Below are positions 3,001-46,865 of a DNA stretch of 64,000 nt, in pieces. Numbering within the stretch: position 1 is the stretch's first letter; each line of letters opens with the position of its first letter. The stretch is from a virus: IMG/VR virus record IMGVR_UViG_3300012663_001306, positions 50,409 to 114,408 of that record; one strand, given 5' to 3'. The translations under genes were made by a program, and so were the position numbers. The notes under the pieces were generated by a model. The model had not been told where the DNA came from, did no database searches, and saw only the letters and a list, made by a program, of their open reading frames with translations.

Positions 3001-3180
3001 TTGGACTGTTACTTCCGCTCCAGGTTGCAATATAATTTGAGAAATTAATTGAATTCGTATCAACAACGTTAACATAAATTTGTGTTACACTACTAGTAAC
3101 AGCGTTATTGAATCTAATACTTCCTGGACTGCCGACTCCAGCTGTAAGTGTGTTATCAAAGTAGTAGCGTAACCCGCCAC
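1..3180 (-). repeat. Seven copies (last one truncated by the window edge) of a ~120-aa domain separated by short collagen linkers
   Basis: Each copy begins G[LI]xYxxD, then G.[IL]RFNN, [YF]INxxD, a conserved W, KGQLxI, YYTLxV and LAxExxxxGDxG. Approximate copies: 3180-2820, 2730-2365, 2250-1885, 1495-1140, 1060-700, 625-250, 170-<1. Confidence 0.75.
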
Positions 3181-15538: not shown

Positions 15539-15543
15539 ATTAA

Positions 15544-15549
15544 TATTTA
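15544..15549 (-). promoter_or_regulatory. TAAATA late-promoter-like box upstream of the giant ORF
   Basis: Minus strand reads AATAAATAttaatATG; resembles the T4 gp55 late promoter TATAAATA; the same box recurs before many genes in the window. Confidence 0.6.
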
Positions 15550-15570
15550 TTAAAAGTTAAACTTGGCAGT

Positions 15571-17859: not shown

Positions 17860-17871
17860 TATATATTTCCA

Positions 17872-27800: not shown

Positions 27801-30800
27801 ACGGTATACTCCATTACTAGGAAGGGATTCAAAATCTTCAGGTACGATACTGCCGGTCCAAATTGGCACCCCACTGTCGCCGTCAACTTTGATCACCGCC
27901 GGTATTTCATTACCGTCATAGAAAGCACCTGCTAGATAATAATTTCCAGAATTATCACAGGCTATATCAACACCGGCAAACGCTCCGTCAATAAATCCTA
28001 AACTTGCCTGGGCAACTCCGCCGAGTCCAAGATTGCCTTCAGTGTCCATGTAGCCGGTCCAGCAACCAAATGTTGGGTCGAGTGCTGTGGCCAACCAATA
28101 GATTCTGTCATTGCTGTCTATGGCAAAGGCTTGATTGACCGCACCGCAATTAGCACCACTGTCATCATGCCAGGTTCTACTCCATAATAAATTACCATTG
28201 GTATCGTATTTTAACAGTAGACTATCTAGACCAAACATCTCATTGGTATCAAATTGAACGCCACCTAGTACATATACATTGCCCTGACTGTCATAGAAAG
28301 CACCAGTGCCTACGGTATAACTAGATGTAGTGACCGCAGTGGTTATACCCCCAAATTCTGCCGCCCAGTATGGACGAATTACTCCACTGCCGGGTACCTG
28401 TATTGTTACACTGTTGTTGCTGACAGTCAACTTGGTGTTATCGCCACCGTCAATGACAATGGCATCACCGTCGACATTGGCAGTACCGATAACGGTGCCA
28501 TCAATGGCCAGGCCGTCTAGGTATGTTTCTGGACTTGGGATCTGTGTTGGACTTGCGTCTAACCATACACCATCGTTTTTAATGTATAGTCTACCTTCTT
28601 GATTATCAAACCATAACTGTCCATTGACTCTTGTTGGTGCTGTACTGGTTGTTGCTACACGGACAACGGATCCATTAGCATCTTGTATATCATCAGGTAT
28701 GGTTAAGTTACCATCCGCACCAAATTCCCAAGTGTTGCTACTACCGAAACCATTACTTATTCCTGTTAATATTTGTACGGTGCCAGTAGTCGATGCGAAT
28801 GGACTATTGACAATTACTGCCGCAACTTCTGTGCTTGTTGTTCCTAAATTTTCAAAGTTGTCTACCCATTGTAAAGCACCTGCGCCGGACTGACCGTGAA
28901 CAACAACACCTAACAAAGTACCGGTACTGCCTATAATAAAATCCTGGAATCCACCACCACTAATATCTCCAATACGAGTATTGCCACTTGGTAATGTTAG
29001 TACGCCATTTGTGTCAAATGTCCATAAACTATTTCCAGATAAAATATCAATATCAGCCACACTCTGGATTCGAGCAGTACCATTACTGGCCTGGGGAAGA
29101 TTTAACTGCCCAGTGTTGGCAAACGACCAAGAGTATGGTAGCGTACTAGTGACTTGTAAAGTGGCTGTGGTATTGTTTTGTATGCTAGCTGGAATGGTAA
29201 TTATGTCACCGACTGTGAATATTTCTGTAGATTGTACTACAAAATTACCACTGACTAACGGACCCGGGCCCGATGGAACATACACTAAGGTACCAGGATA
29301 GTCGGTGCCGTAGGTAGAGTTGCCAAGATAGTTTGTGCCGCTACTGACCACAGTTACACTAGTTGCATTAATTTGCCCTATGACTGCACCGCTGGTTCTA
29401 ATAGTTGCCACACTTCCGCTAAGATATAAATTATCTCCTGCTTTTAATTCTACATCATCACCATAGTTAAATGTAAGGAATGAGTTTACATCAGTGGGTC
29501 CTATTTTGCCCTGTGATGGTAATGTTAAATTACCATTGCTGCCAAAGGTCCATGTGTTGGCATTGGTAACTAGTGTGATATCACTGTTATTGCTAACAGA
29601 AACTTGCGAAGAGGTGAATGCAAAATTTGCTGTATTAGAACCGCCAGTTTGAATAGGTTCGCCGTTGATGGCTAAAGTGTTGCCAGCTATACTTAATGCT
29701 GTACCACCTAGATAGATAGTGCTGGTGCCCACATACAAACTACGCCATTGACTTGATGTAGATCCTAAGTCGTAAGCTAAATCTGATGAAGGTAATATAT
29801 TACTATAAACATTTTCCCAGTCTACGTAGGCAGCGCCACTATTAGCCCATTCTAAGTAATTTCCAGAACCTTGTATCATTACCTGGCCTGTAGAGCCTTT
29901 AGTTTTTGGTAATACATAGTTTTGACCAAACTCTGCTAATTCGTCGTAATCTCCAAATCCAAATCCGCCATGCGAACCTATTATAACTCCTAACGGAGTA
30001 ACTGCTAATAGTCCAGGACTTTCTCCACTAGTCCCAATATCGAAATCTAGTGAATTAGAAGCATACAGACCAATACTTCGACCTTTAATTAATAAAGGTG
30101 CATGTGTTGCTGTATTAGTAGACAATATTGTTTGTGGTTGCGTTAAGAACGGAACTGGATATCCAGGTGGTGTAGCAAACGAAGCGTTTGGAGTAATTTG
30201 CAGGCTATGTCTGCCTATACCCGAAGCCGGGTTAATGATTCCAGTGCCTTTGAATGTAACAGGGGTATCAATCTCTCCAATAACTCGAACTCTATTTCTC
30301 AATTCAATACTAGCACCCGGTCCTTGCAATGTTACTCCAACAGTTCCAGTATTAATAATTGTGAGTGGTTGGAATGAAGAATCTCCGTCACTGGGTAACA
30401 CAATTCCGGCTGTACTCGGAACATCTCCAAGTTGTGCATTAGGTCGACTAGTTGCCGACAATCTTACAGTTAAATCATTTGCATAAAACGAAGTAGGTGT
30501 GATGGTCCACCCAGCCAAAATATCATTTCCGTTTACATATAAACGAGCAGTTATAGGGTCTACGTTTACTCCGATACCACTAAAATATGTAGCTCCACCT
30601 AGATATAAGTTACCCCATGTGTAGTCTTCAGCACCTATATTATAAAATGCGGCTGTATCTGGAATTAAATTACTTTGGCTAATGCTTTGATATATTGTGG
30701 CTGTTGTGTAATCTCTTAGAAGTTGAGCAGTAATACCTGCTTGTGTATTAGTAACGTACCCTGTTAAAAAGTTAGGCAACGTAGTCGGAGTTAAAAATCC

Positions 30801-31205
30801 TTGATTATCTACATAAAGATAAGTGGTATATTCAGTTAAGGCACCGTCTACATATTCCTTTGTAATATAATTTCTACTATCGAGCGTAGAAGTAGAAACA
30901 AATCTATTGTTAACATAATCTAGACTAGCATAGTTTGATAGAGATATTGTACTGCTAGTAACAAATCCTAAAGGATTTTCATCTGAATAAGGTGTATATC
31001 CTAAAATTGTTGAGATATCAGTTGCTGTAAACGTTACAACTCCCGTTTGACTATTAAAACTAGTAACCCCGGCAGAGACAAATGCTGACTCTAATCTTTT
31101 GAAATTGTCATTTACTTTGGTAAACGCAGTCCTTAAACTGTCGCCGTTACCTGCATTTGCGCTAGTTCCTGTGTTGATGATGTTAATTATTGAAGGCGTA
31201 GTCAT
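24861..31205 (-). CDS. Large baseplate/tail-fibre protein (2,114 aa) with T4 gp9/gp10-like N-terminus and a central beta-propeller-like region
   Basis: INTGTSANAGNGDSLRTAFTKVNDNF matches the gp9/gp10 N-terminal motif. About 9 WxF..G.L.LP repeats. Propeller-like repeats DSQGNVYV, LLKYDTNGNLLW, SKFDTDGVLIW. Confidence 0.75.
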   Translation of the reverse strand: MTTPSIINIINTGTSANAGNGDSLRTAFTKVNDNFKRLESAFVSAGVTSFNSQTGVVTFTATDISTILGYTPYSDENPLGFVTSSTISLSNYASLDYVNNRFVSTSTLDSRNYITKEYVDGALTEYTTYLYVDNQGFLTPTTLPNFLTGYVTNTQAGITAQLLRDYTTATIYQSISQSNLIPDTAAFYNIGAEDYTWGNLYLGGATYFSGIGVNVDPITARLYVNGNDILAGWTITPTSFYANDLTVRLSATSRPNAQLGDVPSTAGIVLPSDGDSSFQPLTIINTGTVGVTLQGPGASIELRNRVRVIGEIDTPVTFKGTGIINPASGIGRHSLQITPNASFATPPGYPVPFLTQPQTILSTNTATHAPLLIKGRSIGLYASNSLDFDIGTSGESPGLLAVTPLGVIIGSHGGFGFGDYDELAEFGQNYVLPKTKGSTGQVMIQGSGNYLEWANSGAAYVDWENVYSNILPSSDLAYDLGSTSSQWRSLYVGTSTIYLGGTALSIAGNTLAINGEPIQTGGSNTANFAFTSSQVSVSNNSDITLVTNANTWTFGSNGNLTLPSQGKIGPTDVNSFLTFNYGDDVELKAGDNLYLSGSVATIRTSGAVIGQINATSVTVVSSGTNYLGNSTYGTDYPGTLVYVPSGPGPLVSGNFVVQSTEIFTVGDIITIPASIQNNTTATLQVTSTLPYSWSFANTGQLNLPQASNGTARIQSVADIDILSGNSLWTFDTNGVLTLPSGNTRIGDISGGGFQDFIIGSTGTLLGVVVHGQSGAGALQWVDNFENLGTTSTEVAAVIVNSPFASTTGTVQILTGISNGFGSSNTWEFGADGNLTIPDDIQDANGSVVRVATTSTAPTRVNGQLWFDNQEGRLYIKNDGVWLDASPTQIPSPETYLDGLAIDGTVIGTANVDGDAIVIDGGDNTKLTVSNNSVTIQVPGSGVIRPYWAAEFGGITTAVTTSSYTVGTGAFYDSQGNVYVLGGVQFDTNEMFGLDSLLLKYDTNGNLLWSRTWHDDSGANCGAVNQAFAIDSNDRIYWLATALDPTFGCWTGYMDTEGNLGLGGVAQASLGFIDGAFAGVDIACDNSGNYYLAGAFYDGNEIPAVIKVDGDSGVPIWTGSIVPEDFESLPSNGVYRAVTVNPATGDVWAIGDYNDGGLRAMLSKWDINGSHQWTKELVTVTGDVAAAVIYNGGYVYTIVNDDPDQKAVVSKFDTDGVLIWASFLAVGELDPIPNNFGDYNTGAYDLSFDATGNVYVTGTIPGPPAGQPQLWITKLNPTNGEMLYSRMLATNAGLLIFDNFSFGFGASGHRVGDIYQDTIVVTAVTESDIDDNTGTNAGRVMVAQLPIDGSVTGTFDNIDIIDITSDIDGICSTGTYTVTTLVWSTGTSTAITSTSSISVSTVTDVVGLTGETIALGSGTAGGTTTTNTWTFVNNNIILPPGGDILDSYGNSVLGDRYIALPNWITVVADTEHLPTLNTDYGWDSSGAWSTNATILGVEEPEGTSFPFRTTFSIPNDTKSVTTVDFVVNDLEESDFGITVFASGTTPTWVWEGSGSSIDAKYTPTELNGISGGAGGGEGWIPPSLGTYRARLTVDPTGTGTAAIELVTMDTSNNVLDTITYTETSFFNTSYKIGFASDNDGGVNKTYFKNLTININNGATVYTDTLMNGNSVGGSTTALGDRLTAGSNSVVLSSTGTLTLPNGGVISEVGGAFGGAIRLEPSGASSSTQALVIYPTAGVDGNHIHLTAGGGGTDLYLGDDDQYVKVDHSGTIVVGTLGANTSTWTFGTDGVLTLSTASVILGNSTDPNVYIETLTTSTTNTWTFAADGSTTLPIGVSIDEYNGSHFPRIVADTGKAFSLQGYGSTGSVALQWAETASTSSQIAQVGLNKFGDGLAKVVLTAGTSTNDMKVWEFAADGKLTLPGALVKSTVAKTGVILPTTTGIPNALGGSMTGLSLANGMYGPVTIGSVTFSVTVASGSITSFFDISSTSSYAVNATIGQLTSEDLGDSPGQTTNIGVDSVVQETPTAVDLTKSVNKLTNGDYTLADGVEGQIMYLVRQTGSTAHNVTVANVRLDGTVYTDVSFTPFTDGTDPTNMVTLIFTDSAWQSMGGVWNFT

Positions 31206-32173: not shown

Positions 32174-32392
32174 TCACCGTTCTCTGTAAATTACACGACC
32201 TTTGGTTAGATCGTATGGACTCATTTCTATTTTAACACGATCCCCTTGCAGGATCTGAATCCTATTTTGGCGCATACGCCCTGAAATTATTGCTGTAATT
32301 GTATGAGTATCTGTGATGCGTACTCTGAACATTGCATTAGGTAATACTTCCTCTACTTTACCTTCTAGCTGAATTAAATCTTCTTTGGCCAC
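32174..32392 (-). CDS. infA: Translation initiation factor IF-1 (72 aa, GTG start)
   Basis: [24 protein letters not shown]...[35 protein letters not shown] is a full-length canonical IF-1. Confidence 0.95.
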
Positions 32393-32638: not shown

Positions 32639-33943
32639 TTAGAGCTTTTCACCTGCAACAAAGCCTCGGAATTGAAGGAATCGCGGAAATCGTAGTGACC
32701 AAACGTCTTCACTATCTTGACTCCGAGTCGCCGCATCAGCCCGGACTTCAACGATTTGACCTTCGAGTGATTCTTTATCATTCCAATATTCAGTACGTTG
32801 GTCGTCAGTAAAACCCGATCCAACATTGACGCGAATAAATTTACCATCATCATTGCCTTCACAAATTAATGCGCCTAATCTTCCTTCGTTTTTTCCGGTA
32901 CCTTCTTCAACGGCTACTACAGCCAGACTAACTTCGATAAATGGCTTCATCTTAAGCCAGCTAACACTACGCTTACATTCGTATTTTGCGTCAAGGTCTT
33001 TGATCATAATACCTTCATAGCCATCGGCAATTGCTTGTTTATTGTATTCTTTGAATTGAAGTTCACCTACATAAGAATCTAGATCTACTTCAATTTGAGG
33101 AATAATGCCAATGCCTCCAATCTTTTCAAAGATTGCTTTCATGCCTTGTAGCATATTGCTACGGCGTTTCTGTCCCATTACACTTTTACCAGCTTTGAAC
33201 TCGCTCAATGGAATAATGTCAAACACCATAAGAACTGCATCGTCACTTTTTACATCAGATTTACGATGTACCTGTTTCATTAATGCTTGGAAACTTGTAC
33301 TAATCATTTCACCGTCAAGAATAACACTACGTCCAATTAGGTCAATGTTATCTTCAATTGCTTTTGTAATATGACTGAAGTTTTCCAGTACTTTGCCGTT
33401 GCGAGTGTATTGTGTAACCGTGCGATTGTCCATATTAACAAAGGTTAGTACACGAACTCCGTCAAGTTTAGGTTCAAGGAGTTTCTTACCTGTAATTTTC
33501 TTTTCGTGGTTAGCACCGTCATGTGCTAGCATACATTCGAATACTGGGACAGCATTCTTTTTAATTTTGTTTACAGTCTTTTCACTCACACCGCATCGCA
33601 GGTCCTTGATAAGAATACGGCGGTACCAGTCGTTCCATTCGGACTGTGTGCTGGCGCTTAGGGCAAGTTCAATTGCATCTCGTGCATCATGCCCAGTGAG
33701 TTGTCTGGTGTATAACAAATGACACAGTTCTTTGAACGCTTCCCAAGGCAGTCCTTGTCCGTCCGGACCGCCATGTGTAGGAACTTTTTTCACACCAAAA
33801 GTATAAAGGTTGTCAAGGGCCATACGCATACCCTCAAACAATTCCGTATTTTCCATATCGGCTTCTGATTTCAGAATGCCTTCTTTATTCAAACGGCTAG
33901 GATGATCTTCTAGGATGCGGATAATTGCGGCGCAGTTACTCAT
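32639..33943 (-). CDS. ATP-dependent DNA ligase (T4 gp30-like, 434 aa)
   Basis: Motif I EPKLDGVR, ILDGE, EGIMIKD, WLKMKP, and OB-fold VGSGF...SLRFPRF. Confidence 0.95.
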   Translation of the reverse strand: MSNCAAIIRILEDHPSRLNKEGILKSEADMENTELFEGMRMALDNLYTFGVKKVPTHGGPDGQGLPWEAFKELCHLLYTRQLTGHDARDAIELALSASTQSEWNDWYRRILIKDLRCGVSEKTVNKIKKNAVPVFECMLAHDGANHEKKITGKKLLEPKLDGVRVLTFVNMDNRTVTQYTRNGKVLENFSHITKAIEDNIDLIGRSVILDGEMISTSFQALMKQVHRKSDVKSDDAVLMVFDIIPLSEFKAGKSVMGQKRRSNMLQGMKAIFEKIGGIGIIPQIEVDLDSYVGELQFKEYNKQAIADGYEGIMIKDLDAKYECKRSVSWLKMKPFIEVSLAVVAVEEGTGKNEGRLGALICEGNDDGKFIRVNVGSGFTDDQRTEYWNDKESLEGQIVEVRADAATRSQDSEDVWSLRFPRFLQFRGFVAGEKL

Positions 33944-33974
33944 ATTAATCTAACTTATTTGTTACGATAACACT

Positions 33975-34003
33975 ATTATACAATATTTTGGATCAAGTGT
34001 CAA
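33975..34003 (-). promoter_or_regulatory. Consensus sigma70 (early-type) promoter for the ligase-hypothetical-infA unit
   Basis: Minus strand TTGACA (34003-33998)-17 nt-TATAAT (33980-33975), a perfect consensus. Confidence 0.85.
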
Positions 34004-34745
34004 GGCCGATTTTACCATTCTTCTTAAAGAATTTTTCTAAAATTATGCCCAAAACATCATATTTGTGGAACCGCGCATCACCGGGACGATCGTGGTGATT
34101 CTTATGCCATGCTTCGCCCCCAACAAATAAGTTAACCCAGACTCTATTACTTGGAATGTCTTTGGCCCAATCATGTGTCCATGTGTTAATAAATCCTTCA
34201 AAGTGAAATACTATAGCAATTGGTGCCCAAAATAATGCAAGTGCTAAATTAAAAGGCAATAGGAATAGTGAGCCTACAAGGATAGGAACATATATCCAAT
34301 AGTAGTACTTGTGCCATACTGCATGATGTGTCTTAAACAGGGTTGCAACAGATCTTGGATCAATTTTACTAAATCCATATCCAAAAATTTGTACATACCA
34401 TACACCCATAATTTTAGGGCTATGTGGGTCTTTATCGTTACCTTGGAATCTATGATGCTGTCTGTGTACTGCCGCCCAACTCAATGCACTTCCTTGCATA
34501 CTAAGGCCGGCAACAAACAATCCTATAAATTCTAACCAACGAGGTAGTTGTACTGCATTGTGACTAATTGACCTATGATAAGTCATGCTTATTCCGATTA
34601 TTGCAATTATATAATGCATTGCTAATGATAACAATAATAATTGCCATTGTAATGTTATTATTAGATATGCTAGAGCAATGTGTCCTAGTGCTACCCACAT
34701 ATAGCCGTATACTCTACCGGCTGTTAATTCTTGAAATTGTTTCAT
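33993..34745 (-). CDS. Membrane fatty-acid (Delta-9-like acyl-lipid) desaturase (250 aa)
   Basis: Three His boxes HRSISH, HRQHH, HKNHH; DPHSP motif; transmembrane segments. Confidence 0.9.
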   Translation of the reverse strand: MKQFQELTAGRVYGYMWVALGHIALAYLIITLQWQLLLLSLAMHYIIAIIGISMTYHRSISHNAVQLPRWLEFIGLFVAGLSMQGSALSWAAVHRQHHRFQGNDKDPHSPKIMGVWYVQIFGYGFSKIDPRSVATLFKTHHAVWHKYYYWIYVPILVGSLFLLPFNLALALFWAPIAIVFHFEGFINTWTHDWAKDIPSNRVWVNLFVGGEAWHKNHHDRPGDARFHKYDVLGIILEKFFKKNGKIGLDT

Positions 34746-35491
34746 TTTTTAATCAGTCGAATAATTAACGCAGGAATATCCCATTCCCACCACTTCTCCC
34801 AATTGCTCCATGCATAAGGTTTAGCATGGTGATTGTTGTGCCAGCCTTCGCCCAAAGTAATTAAATTTGCAATCCAACTATTACGACTTTCGTCATGTTT
34901 CAGATCGTAAGTTTTATAGCCATGTCGATGAGCTATAACAATAATAGAACTACTACTGTGCAAGCACAAAGATGCAGGTAGTGCATATACAAAAATAACA
35001 AACCAAGGATTAATTAATGCTAGGAGCAAACAATACATTACAATGATAGCAAGATAGTTTTTATGCAACCAGCGTTGGAATGCATTTCTTCTAAAATCTC
35101 GAATAAGTTTGACTTCTAATTTTGTAGTATTCCAAAAGCCAAACCATGCTTTTAAGTTTCCTAACAAATAAGGGCTATGCGGATCACCATCCCGTTCACA
35201 TGCTCGATGGTGTTGTCTATGAATTGTAACCCAGGCTAGCGGGCTTCCTACTGTTGTAATAACTCCAATTAAACTTAGTATTTTTTCTAATATTGTAGAT
35301 GTCTTAAAACTTCTATGACTTAGTAGTCTGTGATATCCTATGTTAATTCCAAGTACTCCAATAATCCAATATGTTATAAGAGATATTAACAATAGATAGT
35401 ACTGGCCAGTCATAAAAACCATAGCTATGCCCACTATAGATATAATATGATTCAAGATTTGGAGGCCGCGCACCGTTTGATTATGTGTCAT
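34742..35491 (-). CDS. Second membrane fatty-acid (Delta-9-like) desaturase (~249 aa)
   Basis: GYHRLLSHRSF, HRQHH, DPHSP, GEGWHNNHHA, WWEWD. Start re-assigned to ATG 35491 (TAAGTA box 5 nt upstream; avoids overlap with the divergent gene). ATGA overlap with the next desaturase. Confidence 0.9.
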   Translation of the reverse strand: MTHNQTVRGLQILNHIISIVGIAMVFMTGQYYLLLISLITYWIIGVLGINIGYHRLLSHRSFKTSTILEKILSLIGVITTVGSPLAWVTIHRQHHRACERDGDPHSPYLLGNLKAWFGFWNTTKLEVKLIRDFRRNAFQRWLHKNYLAIIVMYCLLLALINPWFVIFVYALPASLCLHSSSSIIVIAHRHGYKTYDLKHDESRNSWIANLITLGEGWHNNHHAKPYAWSNWEKWWEWDIPALIIRLIKK

Positions 35492-35536
35492 ATCCATACT
35501 TATCCGTATAGTAAATAGGTGTCCATAAATATTGGT

Positions 35537-36067
35537 ATGATCAACCAGAAAGAGTTTATTGAAAATTTTATCAAACATAAAGATACAGTTATCAACGAAT
35601 ACATTGCGTGTCCTAGAAAAAGTATTCCATTATACGGGTTTGATGGATCCGGTAAACCGTTAACAGAATGGCGTACTGTAACACTTTGGTGGGATAAAGA
35701 ACCTTGGCGTATTTTTCAAAAGTATTTTCCCTTCACTACTGACCTAGTTAGAACTGGTCCCACTCACCAAGGAACTGGGTGGCTTATTTTAGAGCCCAAC
35801 TCTCGCACACCCGAACATAATCATATAAGTTGGGGACATAAGATCATTGTTCATTTACCTACAGAAATTCCAGAAGGCGATACAGGATTTTGGGTAGAAG
35901 GCAAAGTTCATAGGTGGAAAATGGGGGAGTTATTTGCATTTGATGCAAATAAAGCTCATTACGGGTTTAATAATACAGGCAACCCGCGTTCTATTTTTGT
36001 AATGGAATTTGACTACAACGAATGGATTGATACCCTGCGCCCGTATATGCTATTAGACAGAGAATGA
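35537..36067 (+). CDS. Aspartyl/asparaginyl beta-hydroxylase-like Fe(II)/2OG oxygenase (~176 aa)
   Basis: [12 protein letters not shown]...VHLP...[19 protein letters not shown]...R fits the Asp_Arg_Hydrox pattern. Start at ATG 35537, 5 nt after TAAATA (35526-35531). Confidence 0.75.
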
Positions 36068-36382
36068 ACTACCGCATCCGCAGGTTGTTTCGGCATTAGG
36101 ATTTGTAATACTAAAATTACTACCCATTAAGTCTTCTTTGTAATCAATAATTGAGCCTTGCAGGTATTGAATACTCATACTATCTATTAAAAATCTTACA
36201 CTGTTTTTTTCAATCATAAAGTCATCTTCATTCTGGATTTCGTCAAATGTAAATCCGTATTGAAATCCACTGCATCCGCCGCCTTGAACAAATACACGTA
36301 GCATTAGCAACGGGTTTGCCTCATCAATAATTAAATCTTTAACTTTATCAGCACACTTATCTGTAATTTCAAGTTGTTGCAT
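36053..36382 (-). CDS. erpA: A-type Fe-S carrier, ErpA-like (109 aa)
   Basis: [20 protein letters not shown]...[16 protein letters not shown]. Confidence 0.9.
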
Positions 36383-36752
36383 GTTTTTTCCTATAATCTT
36401 CTACTGCGGCTTTGATTGCGTCTTCTGCTAAAATACTGCAATGTATTTTAACTGGAGGTAATGCTAGTTCTTCTGCGATTTGGGAATTTTTAAGGTTAAC
36501 AGCATCATTAATATGCATACCCTTAACCCACTCTGTAACCAACGACGAACTGGCGATTGCTGAACCACAGCCATATGTCTTGAAACGAGCATCTCTAATA
36601 ATACCATCTTCGTCTACCTTTATTTGTAATTTCATTACATCGCCACACGCAGGAGCGCCGACCATGCCGGTTCCAACTGTATCGTCAATTTCAAACTTAC
36701 CTACATTTCTTGGGTTTTCGTAATGATCAATAACTTTATCTGAATATGCCAT
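36369..36752 (-). CDS. iscU: Fe-S cluster scaffold IscU (127 aa)
   Basis: [53 protein letters not shown]. Confidence 0.95.
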
Positions 36753-36783
36753 TGGGGGTTCCTATGAGTAATTAGTGCCAACA

Positions 36784-36805
36784 TGCTATTTACACGTAAA
36801 TAGCA
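36784..36805. promoter_or_regulatory. Perfect 10-bp inverted repeat made of two back-to-back TAAATA boxes between divergent iscU and iscA
   Basis: TGCTATTTAC-AC-GTAAATAGCA. Confidence 0.7.
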
Positions 36806-36807
36806 GT

Positions 36808-37134
36808 ATGATAACTATTACCGAAACCGCTAGAAACAAAATACTTAAATTGCTGGCAAAAAGAGGAAAAGGAGTAGGAATCCGTCTGGGTGTAAAAACT
36901 ACAGGATGCAGTGGGCTGGCATATACTTTAGAATATGTAGATGAATACACTATAGAAAACGGTATTACTAATTATGCACAACAGGATTTTGTAGTTTTAG
37001 TAGATGCAAAGTCTGATGCTTACTTAAAAGGCATGACAGTTGATTGGGCAAGAAACGGTCTTAATGAAGGATTTGAATTTAAGAATCCCAATGAGAGAGA
37101 TAAGTGCGGGTGTGGAGAATCTTTTAGAGTTTAA
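36808..37134 (+). CDS. iscA: A-type Fe-S carrier IscA (108 aa)
   Basis: MITITE...RGKGVGIRLGVKTTGCSGLAYTLEYVD...GLNEGFEFKNPNERDKCGCGESFRV. ATG 36808 lies 5 nt after TAAATA. Confidence 0.92.
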   Translation: MITITETARNKILKLLAKRGKGVGIRLGVKTTGCSGLAYTLEYVDEYTIENGITNYAQQDFVVLVDAKSDAYLKGMTVDWARNGLNEGFEFKNPNERDKCGCGESFRV

Positions 37135-37601
37135 TCAAATTCTTCTAAAGAAAATGTAATACTTGCCCGTGGACTATCCGGTATAGCACAATGTAATAAT
37201 CCTGGAAGGATATATAACATTTGATTTTCTTGTAATACAAATTTAGAATCTTCAACTTGCCATAACGTATCGCCTATTATTTGCCATACCCATAAATGTT
37301 GTCCAGGATCTTTATGTAAATCAAATGTTTTACTAGTTGGTGTTGTTCCTGCATATAGTCCTGCTCTAGCATAATAATTTGGTAACAATGGTTGTAGAAA
37401 ATCCAGTACATCTTTACAATACGGATCTTGATCTAATCCACCTAACGTAAATCCACCTTCTCCAAAATTTCTATAATACAGTTTGTTTATGCTTGTTTGA
37501 TGTTTGACCAAAGAATGTATTTTATCCCATGTCCATTTGTTAGAATCTAACGTGTGGTCTACAACTCCCCAACGGACATTGAAAGATGTAGTATCAATCA
37601 T
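37131..37601 (-). CDS. JmjC/cupin-type Fe(II)/2OG oxygenase-like protein (156 aa)
   Basis: FDLHKD (HxD)...WQIIGDTLWQV...LYILPGLLHCA...RASITF. ATGA overlap with the upstream gene. Confidence 0.75.
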   Translation of the reverse strand: MIDTTSFNVRWGVVDHTLDSNKWTWDKIHSLVKHQTSINKLYYRNFGEGGFTLGGLDQDPYCKDVLDFLQPLLPNYYARAGLYAGTTPTSKTFDLHKDPGQHLWVWQIIGDTLWQVEDSKFVLQENQMLYILPGLLHCAIPDSPRASITFSLEEFD

Positions 37602-38350
37602 AACTCTTCTTCAACTCGATCCCAAAATAATATTCTAGCTTTAATAGCTTCAACAGCAGTCTGCTCTGCTTCTACTATTTTAGTAGGGCTGTAATCGCAC
37701 AGTTCGTTAATTAAGTTCAGTGCGGCCGGCCCATGTTCTTCTCCGTCAACTTCTATATGCCTATCTAAATAATATAAAAATCTGTTAGCGTTCAATGAAT
37801 TAATATCAAGCTGATTTACGAGTCTTCTAAACATTTGCGGAATAACAGTTTCTCGGCCGTAAGTAAAGGCGGCGGCAATTTCATGTGCTTTGCCGCGTCT
37901 AATGATAGTAAAGGTAGAATTCATAAATTCTTTGCTAGGTGCAGGAATATATATGTTATCTAATGCCCAATCTAATCCGTTAGTTTCTACTGAGCTTAGG
38001 AAATTGGTTATAGGTGCAACATTTGCTCCAATTTCTAACATAGCCTGGCAGTAAAGATCAAAATGGGATAAGTGATTACCGTTAAACGGATCAACATCAC
38101 TTTCTTCTGCTAAAATAATTTCGTTGATCAACCTACTGGATGTACGCTGTATCCTAGTAGGAATCCAAAGGTCACCGCTTGGGCATATTCTATGTTGTAG
38201 TGCTTTAGCAAGACTCATAAAATCCCATACAGCATACACATGATGTTCCATGAATATCCGTAGATCTTCAATTGATTGAATTGTGTTGGTTACCAGTAAA
38301 GAATGATTCTCTAACAGTACCCTATGTTGTTCAATTATTGACTGGCGCAT
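37598..38350 (-). CDS. DUF3050-like protein (heme-oxygenase-like helical fold, probable diiron enzyme), 250 aa
   Basis: FMEHHVYAVWDFMSL, RLINEIILAEESD, SHFDLY, AAFTYGRETVIP, YYLDRHIEVDGEEHGP. Confidence 0.8.
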   Translation of the reverse strand: MRQSIIEQHRVLLENHSLLVTNTIQSIEDLRIFMEHHVYAVWDFMSLAKALQHRICPSGDLWIPTRIQRTSSRLINEIILAEESDVDPFNGNHLSHFDLYCQAMLEIGANVAPITNFLSSVETNGLDWALDNIYIPAPSKEFMNSTFTIIRRGKAHEIAAAFTYGRETVIPQMFRRLVNQLDINSLNANRFLYYLDRHIEVDGEEHGPAALNLINELCDYSPTKIVEAEQTAVEAIKARILFWDRVEEEL

Positions 38351-39659
38351 TTATAGATTCTATCCCCATTTCTAGCAACTCTACTTCTTGTCCAAATAAT
38401 AATTCAAAGGCTTTGTGCTGTATGGCGCCGTTCCATACTTTTTCTACTCTACAGTTTTGTAGGAACACGTTATCTGGGAATGTTATAGGACAACTAGACT
38501 TGCACAGTCTACGTACACTACAATCAGAACAATGAGTTTTCTTTCTGTTAAGATCTAATTGTATAATGCGGATGCCTTTTAAGTTATCAATTTTACCTGC
38601 AATAAATTTTTCGCTTGTATGCGGACACAGTCTTACATTTCCTTGGACATCAACTGATAGCACATCTTCGGCATCTGCTCCACACCCTGTTGTCATTGTT
38701 ACAGGTACTTGATGTTTAAGTGTGGCAGCATAGTCAAGAACTCCGCCCTTGCCATCAAATATATTTGTTTCTAAGAACTCTCGATTTTTATTTCTTCCGT
38801 GAGTCTTTAGTTGTTTAATGCACTCGTCAATATAGCTATTCATTGTATGTTTGAAGTTTGCTAGGTCTTCTCCAGATATAACATGATCAGCACTATTTTG
38901 TGAATTAGTCTCGTCATAAATTCTAGCCATTGTATAACTTAATTTGACATTTTTAAGATTGAGTTTTTCTGCAACATCTCTAAAATATTTGTTAATGCCA
39001 AACATATCATAGTTGGTTAAACTTATAACAGTATTAAAGCTAAACTGTACATGAGGATACATGGTGTCTAATCGTTGCAATGTTTTAGCCACACTAGACT
39101 TATCAAATATGTCTTCGCCACGTAAAGATTCTTGTCCAGGACCGTCGTGGCTTATTCCCATAGTAATTTTTGATTCTAGCGTCTCAAAAAAGTCAGCATG
39201 TTTATCTCTTAGTGGACTACCATTAGTAGATATATAGAAATGACGTCCTGCTTTATCTAAGTGTTTCATAACTGGCATTATGTCATTCCAATATAGGAAC
39301 GGTTCTCCGCCCCAAAGCTCTATGCGTTCTAAGTTTTCAAGGTCAAGATAAGTATCGATTGATTTAATAAATGCATCCAGATTGGTGTTCTTTTTTTGCT
39401 CTTCTGGATTACCAATGTCTTTCTGCATACAGTAAGAGCAACTATAGTTACAGGCCTGCCCAAACAAAATACGAATAGCTGTTGGCTTATTACTTTTCTT
39501 TCTAGAGCCATGCACTTTGCTAGCTTCTTCATAGAAAGAAATATCTTTCTCCGGAGGAAGCGTTAATGGTTCGCCTAGTTCGTTGTATATGGCATTATTA
39601 TTAATTTCATAATAGATAATGCTGTTTGATTGTTTTAATCTAAATTTGGAATAGCTCAT
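38331..39659 (-). CDS. Radical SAM protein with SPASM-type C-terminus (442 aa)
   Basis: CNYSCSYC, WGGEP, STNG, SHDG; C-terminal CGAD...DVQGNVRLCPH...CSDCSVRRLCKSSCP...C. Confidence 0.92.
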   Translation of the reverse strand: MSYSKFRLKQSNSIIYYEINNNAIYNELGEPLTLPPEKDISFYEEASKVHGSRKKSNKPTAIRILFGQACNYSCSYCMQKDIGNPEEQKKNTNLDAFIKSIDTYLDLENLERIELWGGEPFLYWNDIMPVMKHLDKAGRHFYISTNGSPLRDKHADFFETLESKITMGISHDGPGQESLRGEDIFDKSSVAKTLQRLDTMYPHVQFSFNTVISLTNYDMFGINKYFRDVAEKLNLKNVKLSYTMARIYDETNSQNSADHVISGEDLANFKHTMNSYIDECIKQLKTHGRNKNREFLETNIFDGKGGVLDYAATLKHQVPVTMTTGCGADAEDVLSVDVQGNVRLCPHTSEKFIAGKIDNLKGIRIIQLDLNRKKTHCSDCSVRRLCKSSCPITFPDNVFLQNCRVEKVWNGAIQHKAFELLFGQEVELLEMGIESINAPVNN

Positions 39660-40714
39660 ATTTTACTTATTATTGGTATAACCTGGTCTGTTTTTAACAT
39701 TCCAAATTTTGTCATTGTCCACCCTAGCTCTTGAAGTTTATAAAAAAATCTCGACTTGTTAGTATACATGTAGTATGGTATAAAAGTAAAGTTTTTATTA
39801 ACGGTGTATTCTAAGGTTGTTTTGTAGTATTCTCTAAACTTTGGATTGATAACTCTATTTTTCCAACTATCGTAATGGTATTGTTTGCTCGTAAGCATAT
39901 CAGTCATAAAGCTAGAATGATCAAACCCGTTAGTAATTAAATGAAACGGATCAATAGTTAAATTACTAGCATCGTCGCTTGAAAAATAAAATCTATCGTT
40001 ATATAGATGTATAGACTCCCTATAAATTTGCATCAATCCGCTATTGTCGTTTACAACCCACGTATTTTGATATTCGGCATAGTCTTGTTCTAATATTTCT
40101 CTGTTGTTTGTTCTAAAATCGTGATGCACACAATTATGTAATCTATGCTTTTTAGTAAATTCAATTAACTCTTTGAAGATAGTAGGATTACCGCAGTCTA
40201 TATATTTGATTTTTTGTATTCCGTACTTATCGTATAGTTTACCTAATGTATCAAGTACTTTATCAACACCCACTTGTTCTAAAAATTCTGTGCTTATAGA
40301 GATATCGCCCAGGGTTTTTATCTTAATATCTAAGTCAAGTATTCGGAAGATTGCGTTATCAGTAATACATACTTCAAACAGGTGTCCGTGGGTTTGATAC
40401 CATTTGTAGTGGTTAGGAAAATTATATTTTAGATAATACAAGTCATCATTTGTCCTAACAGATCCAAAGTAATCAAATATTTCAAACCACGTAGATTGCA
40501 AACTAAAATCATCTGTAAAAATTTCATTTACTAAATCTTTAGTTTTAGCCAAATTGTCTTTTATGTAACATACTTTACAACCTGCGCCACAATAGTATCT
40601 TTTACCTAAACTAAAATACAAGTCGTGATCAAGAGAACGAAGGCAATCTTCCTTAATCCAATAGTCAGCTAAACTATCGTAGCCGTCAAAATTATCTCTG
40701 TTTGTATTTTGCAT
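39656..40714 (-). CDS. Atypical radical SAM-like protein (~352 aa)
   Basis: CGAGCKVCY (CxxxCxxC) near the N-terminus, but no GGEP motif and no SPASM cysteines. Start likely ATG 40714, 6 nt after TAAATA (40721-40726). Confidence 0.65.
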   Translation of the reverse strand: MQNTNRDNFDGYDSLADYWIKEDCLRSLDHDLYFSLGKRYYCGAGCKVCYIKDNLAKTKDLVNEIFTDDFSLQSTWFEIFDYFGSVRTNDDLYYLKYNFPNHYKWYQTHGHLFEVCITDNAIFRILDLDIKIKTLGDISISTEFLEQVGVDKVLDTLGKLYDKYGIQKIKYIDCGNPTIFKELIEFTKKHRLHNCVHHDFRTNNREILEQDYAEYQNTWVVNDNSGLMQIYRESIHLYNDRFYFSSDDASNLTIDPFHLITNGFDHSSFMTDMLTSKQYHYDSWKNRVINPKFREYYKTTLEYTVNKNFTFIPYYMYTNKSRFFYKLQELGWTMTKFGMLKTDQVIPIISKI

Positions 40715-40729
40715 AATCAATATTTACAA

Positions 40730-41848
40730 TTAAGAAATAATCTTAAAGTCTTCTTGGATTCCTACCCATTCTAAGATATTTTGTTTTTGATTTAGCTTTG
40801 ATACATGCATTATAACAAAGTCCATATATGTATAAAACTCCTTGCATTTTGTACCTGGCTGTTCGTTGAACATATGATACAAATACTTTAATCCGCAACT
40901 AGGACGCTTTTTACAGTTCATACAACTATCGTATATTCTTCCAGCATCGCCTTGATTTTTCCAAATTTGCTTGTTTCGCCAATCACCTATACGAGCATCA
41001 ACAGTTTTGTATTCTAGAAAATCGAACTCGGGATAAATGAATCCATCTGGTGAGAGTATTAATTTGTTATGCTCTGAAAAGTATGCTTTATCAACCATAG
41101 TATAACATCCGTCAATATATACAGATATCTTTTTAACATAGAGTATCTGAATAAATTGCAAAAAGGCATCTAAAAATTGTACTAAATCTAACTTATCAAT
41201 TATAACGTCAAACTTATCTTTACCTCTTCGATGCCTTAACGGAATAATATTAATAGATCGGCATCTAGTTTTATAACAGGTACTAACAATATCTTTTATG
41301 TTGTCTAATGAAAAAGAGTTTGGTTGATCAATGGGTAACACGCATTGCCATTGCCACTTAATTTTATTTCTATTAAGTACTGTTGACATTTCTACAACAT
41401 CAAACGATTTTCTATTAGTAGCTTGATGCATAAAATCGTAACTGACTGTTACATATAATACATCTGCGTATTGATCAAAGAAGTCTTCAGTCTCTTTAAC
41501 TAATGAGCCGTTTGTAGTTACAGTCAATTGCCAGTTGTTCTTTTTTAAGATAGGATATAACCATAACATTATTTCCTTCATTCGAGTTATAAAGAGCAAA
41601 GGCTCGCCGCCGTGAAATGATACACGTTCTACTTCATTTGGTTGAAGGGCAACCCATTCTATAAACTCTTTGATATCTTGAGAAGTATCTCGAGTTAAGT
41701 TTTGCCCTCCTAGATTTGTAATATAGTCTCTATCGCAATATGTACAATCAAAATTACATGTGTTACCTAAGTAGATAACAACCATCTTTATTTTATCTAG
41801 TGGTTGAATGGGTATGAGATTTATTTTTTGATTCAATAAGTCGTTCAC
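40730..41848 (-). CDS. Radical SAM protein with reduced SPASM/Twitch-like tail (372 aa)
   Basis: CNFDCTYC, FHGGEPL, TTNG; C-terminal CMNCKKRPSCG...C. Confidence 0.9.
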   Translation of the reverse strand: MNDLLNQKINLIPIQPLDKIKMVVIYLGNTCNFDCTYCDRDYITNLGGQNLTRDTSQDIKEFIEWVALQPNEVERVSFHGGEPLLFITRMKEIMLWLYPILKKNNWQLTVTTNGSLVKETEDFFDQYADVLYVTVSYDFMHQATNRKSFDVVEMSTVLNRNKIKWQWQCVLPIDQPNSFSLDNIKDIVSTCYKTRCRSINIIPLRHRRGKDKFDVIIDKLDLVQFLDAFLQFIQILYVKKISVYIDGCYTMVDKAYFSEHNKLILSPDGFIYPEFDFLEYKTVDARIGDWRNKQIWKNQGDAGRIYDSCMNCKKRPSCGLKYLYHMFNEQPGTKCKEFYTYMDFVIMHVSKLNQKQNILEWVGIQEDFKIIS

Positions 41849-43553
41849 TAAATGTACCTTGATAAGTTTTATGCATGGATTGTAAAAATATCATATGCAG
41901 TAGGCAAAGATAGAATGCACGTTGATACAAGTTTTCAGCTTTTATCTTATTATCAATTGGAGCAAGATTTCCTTTTTTAACAACATAATAGTAAAAGTCA
42001 TCAACTTCTTCTGTATCGCTAGTAATCAGAGCTTTGAGTTCTTCTACAAAATTATCCTTGCTGAAGTTAGGAGTAATCTCATCATTGATAATCTTTTTCC
42101 ATACGGCAAGCAATGTTCTATAATCTGCAATCTCGTCCATATTAACATGAACTTTATCTATTAGCGGATGGAAATTAAATGTGTAGTAGAACATCAAATA
42201 TACCAAACCTTTAACATAGGGATGATTCTCTTCGCTAGATTCTACTGCGCTACAAATGCTTTCGTATTTTTTCTTAAATTGTTTTTTAGCAATATCTTCC
42301 TGCAAGTCTAGATATAGCTTCACAATCTTTTGGCACATGTCGTCTGGGCGAAACATTCTAGATCCGGTATCTAAGTTTCCAGCAGGGCATTGATAACATG
42401 CGTTCTTCAAATCACATGTTTTGCATTGTTCCTCTTCTTCAAACATTTTAGAATATTCTACTTGGAAGTACTTGTACCTGTCTATATAAAGATTATCTTG
42501 GAATAGATTACCTAGTATAGTTTCCGAAGTTGCGCCAGCCTTTTGGTTAGTAAAGAAGTAGCATCCGCTCCAGTCTCCGCTTGCATCGATGGCAATCATG
42601 TCAGATCCTATCATGCAGTTTTCTTCACCTTTCTGTCCAACACCTTCTGAAAAATGTATTTGGAAATCTGCATATTTGTCTAACACTGCTAAAATATCTC
42701 TATGTAGGTTATTCCATTCGCTATCGGACCAGCGGATGAAGCCTTTGCTAGAGTCCAGGATCAGCGGATGTACTACCATCCTTCTAATGCCCCTAGTATA
42801 CAAATGATCAACGAACTCTGTAAAATACGGAGCATTTTCTCTTGCTAGAGTGCATCTAATAATAATACGCTTTTGTTGCTTAGGACCATCGGGCATATAA
42901 CTAATGAAGTCCATAATTTTATTAATCTTGTCTTGCCCAATTTCTCTATGATCAACTTCGCTTCTATCTGTATCAAGCGATAATAAGATATACGTGAAAT
43001 CATAGTTTAGAAATTCGTCTAATAATTCTTTAGTAAACAATAACCCGTTAGTAACCATACCAACAACAGTGTTAACATCACCACGGCTATTTTCTTCTAG
43101 CTCTTTTTCATTTTTTCTTACAAAGTCTAAGATAATATCTTTATGAATTAACGGCTCTCCGCCAAAGAAATTAAAGACTTTCTTTTGTCTTTGATTTGCG
43201 TTAACTAAGAATCTATATGCTTGAAGTAAACTTTCGTTAGTAAATCTTCCAAAATCTTTATTATGCTGTTCGTAGCAGTATGAGCAGGATAGATTGCAAG
43301 CGTTGGTTAAAATTAAATTTAGTTGCTTAAGGTCTTGGAACAAATAGTTAGCTGATGAAATAGATACAACTGTTTCATCTACTTTAGGTACTACTGAAAT
43401 TAGTTTATTTGCTTTTTCTAATCCTTTGGGTGTAATAATATTCTTAGTTTCAAATCGTAGCGAACCGTCTTCAGATGTAGTCACCGAAGCCTTATGATCT
43501 TCCAATCTTTTCTTTTGAGTTTCGTTCTTAATCCAAATTACACTATTGGTCAT
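41793..43553 (-). CDS. Radical SAM/SPASM protein, putative peptide/protein maturase (586 aa)
   Basis: CNLSCSYC, FFGGEPL, VTNG, LSLD; SPASM CMIGSD...DASGDWSGCYFF...CKTCDLKNACYQCPAG...C; extra helical C-terminal domain. ATGA overlap with the Cys-rich small gene. Confidence 0.92.
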   Translation of the reverse strand: MTNSVIWIKNETQKKRLEDHKASVTTSEDGSLRFETKNIITPKGLEKANKLISVVPKVDETVVSISSANYLFQDLKQLNLILTNACNLSCSYCYEQHNKDFGRFTNESLLQAYRFLVNANQRQKKVFNFFGGEPLIHKDIILDFVRKNEKELEENSRGDVNTVVGMVTNGLLFTKELLDEFLNYDFTYILLSLDTDRSEVDHREIGQDKINKIMDFISYMPDGPKQQKRIIIRCTLARENAPYFTEFVDHLYTRGIRRMVVHPLILDSSKGFIRWSDSEWNNLHRDILAVLDKYADFQIHFSEGVGQKGEENCMIGSDMIAIDASGDWSGCYFFTNQKAGATSETILGNLFQDNLYIDRYKYFQVEYSKMFEEEEQCKTCDLKNACYQCPAGNLDTGSRMFRPDDMCQKIVKLYLDLQEDIAKKQFKKKYESICSAVESSEENHPYVKGLVYLMFYYTFNFHPLIDKVHVNMDEIADYRTLLAVWKKIINDEITPNFSKDNFVEELKALITSDTEEVDDFYYYVVKKGNLAPIDNKIKAENLYQRAFYLCLLHMIFLQSMHKTYQGTFSERLIESKNKSHTHSTTR

Positions 43554-45918: not shown

Positions 45919-46248
45919 TTACCTAAAAAGTATCAGACCCATTAAAAGCGTCTGTCCAATAAATCCTACACAAATTGTAGCAATATAGGTCCAGTTGCGT
46001 TCAATTAGACTTTTGAAGAACATAGTAGTTAAACCTGCCCATACAAAAATCATAAGGTCTACTGGGGGTAAGCGATCGCTTTGTCCAACCAATACGCTAA
46101 ACAATGTAGGTACACTGGCTAAATGTAGCAAAACAATAGTAATCCACCCTAGTGTATTACCAGTGACTCTACCCATGTGATCTCGGAAAAAATACCATGA
46201 CCAACGTGGGAATTTTGTCATTAATTCCAATATTTCTCTACGGCTCAT
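45919..46248 (-). CDS. Small membrane protein (109 aa, ~3 TM segments)
   Basis: Three hydrophobic stretches; directly downstream of the cell-wall hydrolase. Confidence 0.7.
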   Translation of the reverse strand: MSRREILELMTKFPRWSWYFFRDHMGRVTGNTLGWITIVLLHLASVPTLFSVLVGQSDRLPPVDLMIFVWAGLTTMFFKSLIERNWTYIATICVGFIGQTLLMGLILFR

Positions 46249-46262
46249 AATTAACTAACCTT

Positions 46263-46865
46263 TCAATTATAAAAAATATGACGACCAATATGGGCCACTG
46301 GTTTCTTACCCCATCCTGGGTTGATGTAATCCCCGTGAAAATACAGGGCATCTTTTAGGCTAGGAAGCCTAAAACCTTCTAGCAAAACTTTCTTTGCTAC
46401 TTCTTCACTTTCCTTAAAACGAGCACCGTTTACGGGTTTCACTGATGGCGCAGATTGACAAACCCAACTAAACTGGCAAACTACTTTACTGTAGATTATG
46501 CTCTTTTGATAGATAACTTGACAGATGTCATCAGGAAATGCTGATGATTTAGCTCTATTCATTGTTACTTGAGCCACTGCAACTTTACCCTCAAACGGTT
46601 CACCACCTGCTTCGTAGTATATGTTCCTGCTTAGACATGCCAACTGCTTTTCTCTCATAGCGGCTGTAATCTCTGTTGTGGGCCCACTAACTTCACTCGA
46701 AGCAAGTTCTCTTTTGTCCATAGCCCAATCGAGCAAACTGACTGCAAGCCAGATGCTAATTGATGCGAGGATTAACGTACAAACTGTTCCGAGGAATCGG
46801 GCAATTTGAATATTGGCTTGACGAGGATCGAGAACTTCCTCTACCAATGTGTTCGTAGTAGTCAT
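46263..46865 (-). CDS. Cell-wall hydrolase, SleB/Hydrolase_2 family, with N-terminal TM segment (200 aa)
   Basis: CLSRNIYYEAGGE..GKVAVAQVTMNR...ICQVIYQ...QFSW...ALYFH...IGRHIFY. Strong SD AAAGGAGG. Confidence 0.9.
   Translation of the reverse strand: MTTTNTLVEEVLDPRQANIQIARFLGTVCTLILASISIWLAVSLLDWAMDKRELASSEVSGPTTEITAAMREKQLACLSRNIYYEAGGEPFEGKVAVAQVTMNRAKSSAFPDDICQVIYQKSIIYSKVVCQFSWVCQSAPSVKPVNGARFKESEEVAKKVLLEGFRLPSLKDALYFHGDYINPGWGKKPVAHIGRHIFYN

Follow-up and report, generated by a model that had tools for sequence, protein, structure and literature searches.

An iscU, iscA-like and erpA trio beside a variable radical SAM island in a T4-like jumbo phage from lake water

Genes for iron-sulfur (Fe-S) cluster assembly have been reported in viruses before. 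Excerpts of a survey by Nishimura et al. (2017, mSphere, PMC5332604) describe 16 marine viral genomes with such genes, 14 of which carry an A-type carrier and 6 an IscU scaffold, and one T4-like genome that holds a carrier together with 12 radical S-adenosylmethionine (rSAM) genes; the conclusion there was that the viral assembly proteins act for Fe-S proteins of both virus and host. For fresh water, the available part of Coutinho et al. (2020, PMC7678222) describes a Lake Baikal virus in which an Fe-S assembly gene lies beside a viral ferredoxin gene, and proposes that the assembly protein matures this ferredoxin. Here we describe three genes, iscU, an iscA-like gene and erpA (the trio, or kit), located next to an operon of rSAM genes in a 64,000-nucleotide (nt) stretch of phage DNA. 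This stretch, called the window throughout, is the last 64 kb of the 114,408-base IMG/VR virus record IMGVR_UViG_3300012663_001306 (positions 50,409 to 114,408; CheckV completeness 32%). Fe-S supply for phage enzymes, the idea at which a sequence-only reading of the window had arrived, is not new as a concept, having been proposed for the marine T4-like viral genomes in the excerpts of PMC5332604. What the locus adds is the presence of all three steps of the chain together, evidence that the viral IscU form one old lineage, and the picture of a kit that stays fixed next to an rSAM island that varies.

The locus shares with the marine T4-like genomes of Nishimura et al., as excerpted, an uncultured T4-like phage source and the combination of genes for IscU and/or an A-type carrier with rSAM genes. 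Unlike those genomes, it belongs to a freshwater jumbo lineage, its IscU is nearest to that of Burkholderiales rather than to Gammaproteobacteria or SAR86, and it joins IscU to A-type carriers of both the ATC-II and the ATC-I type, a trio that the available text of PMC5332604 does not describe. The Lake Baikal virus, as presented in the part of PMC7678222 at hand, is likewise a freshwater virus with an Fe-S assembly protein proposed to act on a virus-encoded Fe-S protein, but there the proposed client is the ferredoxin of a Nitrospira virus, whereas here it would be an rSAM set in a T4-like jumbo phage. Both families of proteins in the trio are already catalogued in phages: IscU matches phrog_8429 (1.4e-41), a NifU-like Fe-S cluster assembly protein placed in the auxiliary metabolic gene category, and the two carriers match phrog_17776 (4.8e-46 and 7.8e-37), which is unnamed and without a functional label; its members here can be assigned to two A-type carrier subfamilies. 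The literature searched contained no experiments that test a phage IscU, IscA or ErpA.

All three genes are intact, as the sequence-only reading had stated, and their coordinates, family scores and ligand motifs bear this out. Pfam searches of the trio returned NifU_N once (PF01592, E 3.6e-53, IscU) and Fe-S_biosyn (PF01521) twice. The iscU gene (36369..36752, minus strand; 127 amino acids, aa) encodes a U-type scaffold that scores 215.5 bits on TIGR01999, above the equivalog cut-off of 192.4, and aligns over residues 1-124 with PDB 2l4x (E 2.3e-62), with the ACGD, GCGS, LPPVK and IHCS segments identical. It thus keeps the full Cys/Asp/Cys/His-Cys ligand set (three Cys, Asp and His) as well as LPPVK; in IscU these ligand residues hold the cluster, and LPPVK is the motif bound by the chaperone HscA. 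The erpA gene (36053..36382, minus strand; 109 aa; PF01521) encodes an ATC-I type carrier scoring 174 bits on NF010147 (cut-off 117), whose best solved relative is 2apn (HI1723, E 1.9e-39); GGGCSG and CGCGSS are conserved and the three Cys are kept. The second carrier, of ATC-II type (36808..37134, plus strand; 108 aa from the ATG at 36808), matches IscA best among the families and, among solved structures, is closest to E. coli IscA (1s98, E 5.6e-32), and its TGCSG and CGCGES segments align with 1s98 so that the three Cys ligands (C...CGC) are retained. Its scores lie under the cut-offs of the IscA equivalog TIGR02011 (134.7 bits against 150.6) and of NF007049 (122.4 against 181) and above that of the A-type subfamily TIGR00049 (101.1 against 58.8), and it was therefore filed as an IscA-like A-type carrier. 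Its open reading frame (ORF) opens at a GTG at 36775, but because the family profiles begin at residue 12-13 the ATG at 36808 is the likelier start.

The geometry of the locus also agrees with what had been read from the sequence. The first 14 nt of erpA lie within the 3' end of iscU, a 55-nt gap separates the starts of the divergent iscU and iscA genes, and iscA converges on the leftward rSAM operon, overlapping its last gene by 4 nt (TTAA, which holds both stop codons); the overlapped gene itself is cupin/JmjC-like, not an rSAM gene. The ratio of nonsynonymous to synonymous substitution rates (dN/dS) among viral homologues, taken from pairs with unsaturated dS, was 0.016 and 0.053 for IscU, 0.12-0.19 for ErpA and 0.08-0.11 for the IscA-like carrier. 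The genes are under purifying selection in phages. The divergent intergenic region contains a perfect 9+9 inverted repeat with a 2-nt spacer (36785..36804), which carries TAAATA in both directions and is not conserved upstream of iscU in relatives.

The source is a fragment of a T4-like jumbo phage from lake water, and the kit lies in true phage DNA. The same record encodes collagen-like tail fibres, an endolysin, a class Ia ribonucleotide reductase, a DNA ligase, NAD salvage enzymes (NAMPT), translation initiation factor IF-1, ribosomal protein S21, and a 976-aa virion protein that is about 40% identical to its counterparts in T4-like cyanophages. The sequence-only reading had named mis-assembled host DNA as one outcome that would overturn it. 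The point in favour of such an origin, through chimeric assembly or contamination, is that the IscU is 79-86% identical to Burkholderiales IscU. When the segment was compared with metagenome contigs, its junctions held: they are reproduced in Logan contigs from lake metagenomes of three studies (X1, X2 and X3), one run of which may be the source sample. A 2340-nt piece of an X2 contig (34165-36504) begins in the desaturase genes, crosses the hydroxylase gene and erpA and ends in iscU, and pieces of 3.2-3.3 kb extend through iscA to 39000, in the rSAM operon, from position 36721 in the start of iscU (X1, X3) or from position 36889 inside iscA (X2). Sequence words sampled from 33500-39000 are present, at 74-76%, in lake or freshwater metagenomes of at least three studies. 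In addition, the G+C content of the isc segment (0.36) is similar to that of the phage DNA around it, the module occurs with phage neighbours in dozens of viral contigs, and neither the viral IscU clade nor the gene context of the viral loci, both described below, resembles a cellular origin (none of 80 cellular sequences in the clade; no iscS, hscB or fdx). A host origin by mis-assembly was accordingly rejected, and we regard it as extremely improbable. Summed depth over 36444-36811, which covers iscU, was 5-12x that of the flanks in lake metagenome contigs, and contigs break there, which would follow from near-identical stretches of iscU being shared by many related phages and bacteria.

To place the viral IscU, IMG/VR was scanned for homologues, which gave at least 600 matching contigs; the best 80, 78-98% identical to the window IscU, were compared with the 80 nearest cellular IscU, all from Burkholderiales (79-86% identical). 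In a tree of 165 sequences, 83 of the 84 viral IscU fall in one clade (Shimodaira-Hasegawa-like approximate likelihood-ratio support, SH-aLRT, 95) that contains 0 of the 80 cellular sequences, L060 being the only viral sequence outside it; both sets had been selected for closeness to the query, and with 126 columns little else in the tree is resolved. The two marks of a viral Fe-S assembly gene in the sense of Nishimura et al., a bona fide viral genome around it and a viral lineage of the gene itself, were thus both found.

The gene contexts also differ clearly. A place beside iscS is a matter of context, not of fold or function. The cellular loci, examined within 6 kb, have IscS (78 of 80), IscA (78), HscB (78), HscA (76), IscR (70) and Fdx (64), and an ErpA-type gene near iscU in none of the 80. 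By comparison, IscS, IscR, HscB and Fdx were found within 10 kb at 0 of 89 viral loci, whereas an A-type carrier is present at 70 of the 80 viral IscU loci (69 within 2.5 kb): the IscA type only at 49, the ErpA type only at 9, both at 12 and none at 10. An ErpA-type gene thus lies within 10 kb of iscU at 21 of these 80 loci, and since this pairing was not seen at 80 cellular loci, it was the phage that joined erpA to iscU. The trio is a phage-specific module, not a captured host operon, and its erpA-iscU joining is a phage pairing absent from the cellular loci examined. Its proteins are clear homologues of those of the bacterial iscRSUA-hscBA-fdx operon and the unlinked erpA of E. coli and Burkholderiales, with all ligands kept, but the arrangement is unlike the bacterial one, as had been noticed from the sequence alone. 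The viral module lacks iscR, iscS, hscB, hscA and fdx, erpA is joined to iscU, and iscA is inverted here, so that iscU and iscA diverge and erpA follows iscU.

The sequence-only reading had also reported no iscS, hscAB or fdx in the window, and had suggested that the rest of the genome be searched for iscS and hscA. A profile search of the whole 114,408-base record, from which about two-thirds of the genome is missing, found no IscS (PF00266, Aminotran_5), no Hsp70/HscA (PF00012) and no Fer2 (PF00111). The claim therefore extends to the full record for iscS, hscA and fdx; hscB was not searched in the record. Hsp70 genes do lie 5-7 kb from iscU in five relatives (L050, at 13225-15612, L003, L004, L007 and L076). 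As candidates for HscA they were rejected: they are DnaK (976 bits on NF001413, cut-off 648), with HscA models under their cut-offs, and the DnaK gene is followed by an IbpA-like small heat-shock gene.

Together, these observations lead us to favour, with moderate confidence, the view that the kit is a phage auxiliary module giving extra Fe-S delivery, chiefly to the phage's own rSAM/SPASM enzymes. The module encodes what would be the middle and end of the ISC (iron-sulfur cluster) pathway, namely the scaffold IscU, an IscA-type carrier (ATC-II) and ErpA (ATC-I). Because no sulfur donor, chaperone or reductant is found in the sequenced part of the genome, the module would depend on the host: sulfur would be taken from the host cysteine desulfurase IscS, and host HscB/HscA and ferredoxin would be used. 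From phage IscU, newly assembled clusters would move to the phage IscA-type carrier, on to phage ErpA and finally to apo-proteins, which is the order of transfer (scaffold, ATC-II, ATC-I, target) given in the excerpts of PMC8593673. The same excerpts describe host isc and erpA as held down by IscR and RyhB; the phage copies, transcribed from phage DNA, need not obey this control, and an infected cell would gain additional capacity for Fe-S delivery. This would probably benefit above all the neighbouring rSAM/SPASM enzymes, four by our count, which use [4Fe-4S] clusters heavily and are the most likely clients; Fe-S enzymes of the host may gain from it too. Transfer steps, host partners, escape from host regulation and clients are all things we infer from the sequences. 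A rationale for carrying such a kit may be found in the observation that foreign Fe-S enzymes often fail in E. coli and that more of them work when an Fe-S pathway is co-expressed (PMC8896826, in excerpt).

The presumed clients are encoded by the leftward operon (37131..43553, minus strand; PF04055, PF13186, PF11251, TIGR04085; phrog_1802, phrog_36229). Its genes encode a cupin/JmjC-like protein, a DUF3050 protein, an rSAM/SPASM protein of 442 aa, a 354-aa protein, an rSAM protein of 372 aa and an rSAM/SPASM protein of 586 aa. No Pfam family matches the 354-aa protein (39656-40720, minus strand), which matches phrog_36229 and has a CX3CX2C motif (CGAGCKVC) close to its N-terminus; it is probably a fourth, divergent rSAM enzyme of the operon.

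If the kit serves rSAM enzymes, the two should occur together across relatives, a correlation that the sequence-only reading had proposed examining. Relatives were chosen by the 976-aa virion protein, which gave 80 loci; the 46 with contigs of at least 28 kb were kept, the other 34 left out, and whole records were searched with the Radical_SAM, NifU_N and Fe-S_biosyn profiles. (The ligase was dropped as a lineage marker in favour of the virion protein, since its 9 loci were too few.) Among the 46 relatives, 7 have both kit and rSAM genes, 4 the kit only, 4 rSAM genes only and 31 neither (Fisher p 0.0014, odds ratio 13.6). Records of at least 100 kb hold 9, 4, 1, 7, 4, 6 and 6 rSAM genes with the kit versus 0, 0, 0, 1, 0, 1, 2 and 0 without it (Mann-Whitney p 0.0025). 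Expressed as density, this is 37 matches in 1.69 Mb (2.19 per 100 kb) with the kit versus 9 in 2.97 Mb (0.30) without it, an approximately 7-fold difference. The 43 IscU-anchored records searched, of 80 found, hold 54 rSAM matches in 1.63 Mb, or 3.3 per 100 kb. Of the genomes that are complete or nearly so, all five that encode IscU or an A-type carrier (G036, G063, G076, G084 and C48C1) hold at least one rSAM gene, versus none above cut-off in four near-complete records without the kit, two of which are near-duplicates. Genome-level co-occurrence of the kit and rSAM genes is thus observed. The richest record is G033 (the record of locus L055), with 15 Radical_SAM matches at 36-72 kb of its 83 kb; G034 has 10 in 200 kb. 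A tblastn search of the window rSAM proteins against the 80 IscU loci had returned 1 weak match, suggesting that the kit is independent of rSAM genes; this indication was rejected, the shortage being an artefact of rSAM divergence and of the 10-kb flanks, as the Pfam-profile search of whole records revealed.

Several results weigh against the view that the kit chiefly serves rSAM enzymes. The distribution of the kit on the marker tree requires 8 changes, and over 8 independent pairs the sign test gave a median p of 0.375, an underpowered comparison in which about 3.5 pairs point in the same direction, 0.8 in the opposite one and 3.8 show no difference. The association is strong in the raw counts and not significant in the phylogeny-aware comparison; most records lacking the kit are fragments, so that its absence is weak evidence. 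As for position, iscU lies no nearer to rSAM genes than under random placement (combined Fisher p 0.21 in 23 records, 0.10 in the 12 of at least 70 kb); in the 23 records with both, the distance to the nearest rSAM gene is at most 5 kb in 9, at most 15 kb in 16 and 18-75 kb in 7. A full trio occurs in 96 kb of G014 without an rSAM match, and G067 (5 rSAM genes) and G075 (2) have no kit on the fragment. The complete phages with IscU (C48C1, G036 and G063) hold one rSAM gene, distant from iscU; C48C1, from a cultured collection, has no carrier. Phage T4, for its part, is not known to carry isc genes and still matures the rSAM activase NrdG, so the kit is no prerequisite for a phage rSAM enzyme. 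A further point concerns the age of the kit relative to its neighbours: the kit predates the window's particular rSAM operon, which sits in a variable island that has different cargo in relatives.

This last conclusion comes from the comparison of neighbourhoods. The kit is flanked by a conserved backbone, with the ATP-dependent DNA ligase (32639..33943, minus strand; PF01068, PF14743) on one side and, across the island, a 109-aa ORF and the 200-aa endolysin (45919..46865, minus strand; PF07486, phrog_938) on the other. In relatives the ligase gene (71-85% identity) adjoins erpA, or the iscA-like carrier gene in L259, and the 109-aa ORF and endolysin adjoin isc genes in 16-18 of the 80 IscU loci and in G045, G047, G070 and G076. 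The backbone order in relatives is endolysin, 109-aa ORF, (iscA), iscU, erpA, ligase, IF-1, HNH and fibre. This order recurs without the window's rSAM operon in eight loci (L012, L013, L043, L051, L069, L072, L088 and L090). The window carries two blocks in addition to it. The first, two fatty-acid desaturase genes (minus strand) and an Asp/Asn beta-hydroxylase-like gene (plus strand) at 33993..36067 (PF00487 twice, PF05118), is missing between erpA and the ligase in L012, L043, L051, L069, L072, L088 and L090, and likewise in L258, L259, L260 and L262, where erpA (in L259 the iscA-like carrier gene) abuts the ligase. The second, of 8.7 kb, extends from the cupin gene to a 153-aa ORF between iscA and the 109-aa ORF; it contains DUF3050, the three Pfam-positive rSAM genes and the gene for the 354-aa CX3CX2C protein, and its G+C content is 0.315-0.349. 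Other rSAM matches, 7 in G070 and 5 in G076, occupy the slot of this second block, and when these were compared with the window rSAM proteins (tblastn, 1e-4), G070 gave none and G076 one weak match (23% identity, 39 bits). G045 and G047 have rSAM clusters beyond the endolysin. The tie to the adjacent operon proposed by the sequence-only reading is thus borne out to the extent that kit records are rich in rSAM genes, while the adjacency itself is not conserved.

The same neighbourhoods could be explained by a general booster of host metabolism with no dedicated tie to rSAM enzymes. The kit would then supply host Fe-S enzymes in respiration, isoprenoid synthesis and nucleotide-related steps once expression of host genes has been shut off or under iron or oxidative stress, and kit and rSAM operon would be neighbours only as shared cargo in or next to a hyperplastic island. 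Points in its favour are that the kit belongs to the backbone and is flanked by blocks resembling insertions, that its adjacency to rSAM genes is not beyond chance, and that G014 has a full trio without an rSAM match; a consensus sigma-70 promoter before iscU in some relatives, like those of early host-takeover genes, also fits, and Nishimura et al. allow host clients as well (PMC5332604, in excerpt). It accounts poorly for the sevenfold rSAM enrichment in kit records, for the five of five against none of four near-complete genomes, and for the recurrence of different rSAM clusters beside the kit in the same island of G070 and G076. On balance we consider such a booster rather unlikely.

A stronger form of the favoured explanation, rSAM-directed delivery, makes the trio a fixed "maturation platform" of this freshwater jumbo T4-like lineage, edging an island that unrelated rSAM cassettes enter and leave, and a portable compatibility layer for Fe-S enzymes gained by horizontal transfer. 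We offer this form tentatively, as a possibility well short of even. If it is true, an own scaffold/ATC-II/ATC-I chain would let phages acquire foreign rSAM pathways and run them in any host infected, which would explain the accumulation of rSAM genes (up to 15 per 83 kb) in kit-bearing lineages alone.

The surroundings of the kit might also point to iron itself. The segment 33993-38350 is dense in genes for iron enzymes that are not Fe-S proteins, with two desaturases, the AspH-like hydroxylase, the JmjC-like cupin and DUF3050, and elsewhere in the record (G000:C1:36721-37980) a ferrochelatase is fused to a 2-oxoglutarate (2OG)-Fe(II) oxygenase. Published work has suggested that IscA binds iron, and DUF3050 has relatives among haem-oxygenase-like enzymes. 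It may then be that the A-type proteins, perhaps with IscU, are iron chaperones or buffers for these non-haem iron enzymes; alternatively, they might be decoys that titrate host IscS. With all Fe-S ligands and LPPVK kept under strong purifying selection, and with the other iron enzymes not conserved beside the kit in relatives, either role seems very unlikely to us.

The sequence-only reading had placed the action of the kit in late infection, and for this part no support was found. The window holds a single copy of the T4-type late-promoter octamer TATAAATA, where about 10 would be expected, a strong depletion given that every one of 100 shuffles contained the octamer; this copy is far from the isc genes. 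In 11 of 80 relatives, iscU is preceded by a sigma-70 promoter of the consensus TTGACA-17-TATAAT type, which suggests transcription by the host polymerase. In the window itself, a scan for sigma-70 promoters and terminators gave 81 versus 71.9 in shuffles, which is not above expectation. Perfect 12-of-12 sigma-70 consensus promoters lie at 46969-46941 (minus strand), upstream of the endolysin, and at 34003-33975 (minus strand), upstream of the ligase; the former could drive the whole leftward block ending with the rSAM operon. In RNA, three contigs of the freshwater metatranscriptome run X20 are identical to the desaturase genes; they cover 34555-35145 only and none of the isc genes, and carry-over of DNA is possible.

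The value of these observations lies in detail and scale, not in kind. The trio marks a large and abundant lake phage lineage, with at least 600 IMG/VR contigs matching IscU, that invests in iron-sulfur supply. If the trio matures phage rSAM enzymes, it would be a natural example of foreign Fe-S enzymes needing matching assembly and delivery, as discussed in the excerpts of PMC8896826, and its genes would be practical helpers for expressing uncharacterised phage rSAM/SPASM enzymes.

The record has some further features. IF-1 is encoded at 32174-32392 of the window (minus strand), and the ribosomal protein S21 homologue elsewhere in the record (G000:C1:8322-8567, minus strand). The window also contains three giant ORFs, all on the minus strand, at 2-15538 (more than 5179 aa, running off the window), 24861-31205 (2114 aa) and 52003-60345 (2780 aa), and collagen-like fibre genes (15571-19872) lie beside them.

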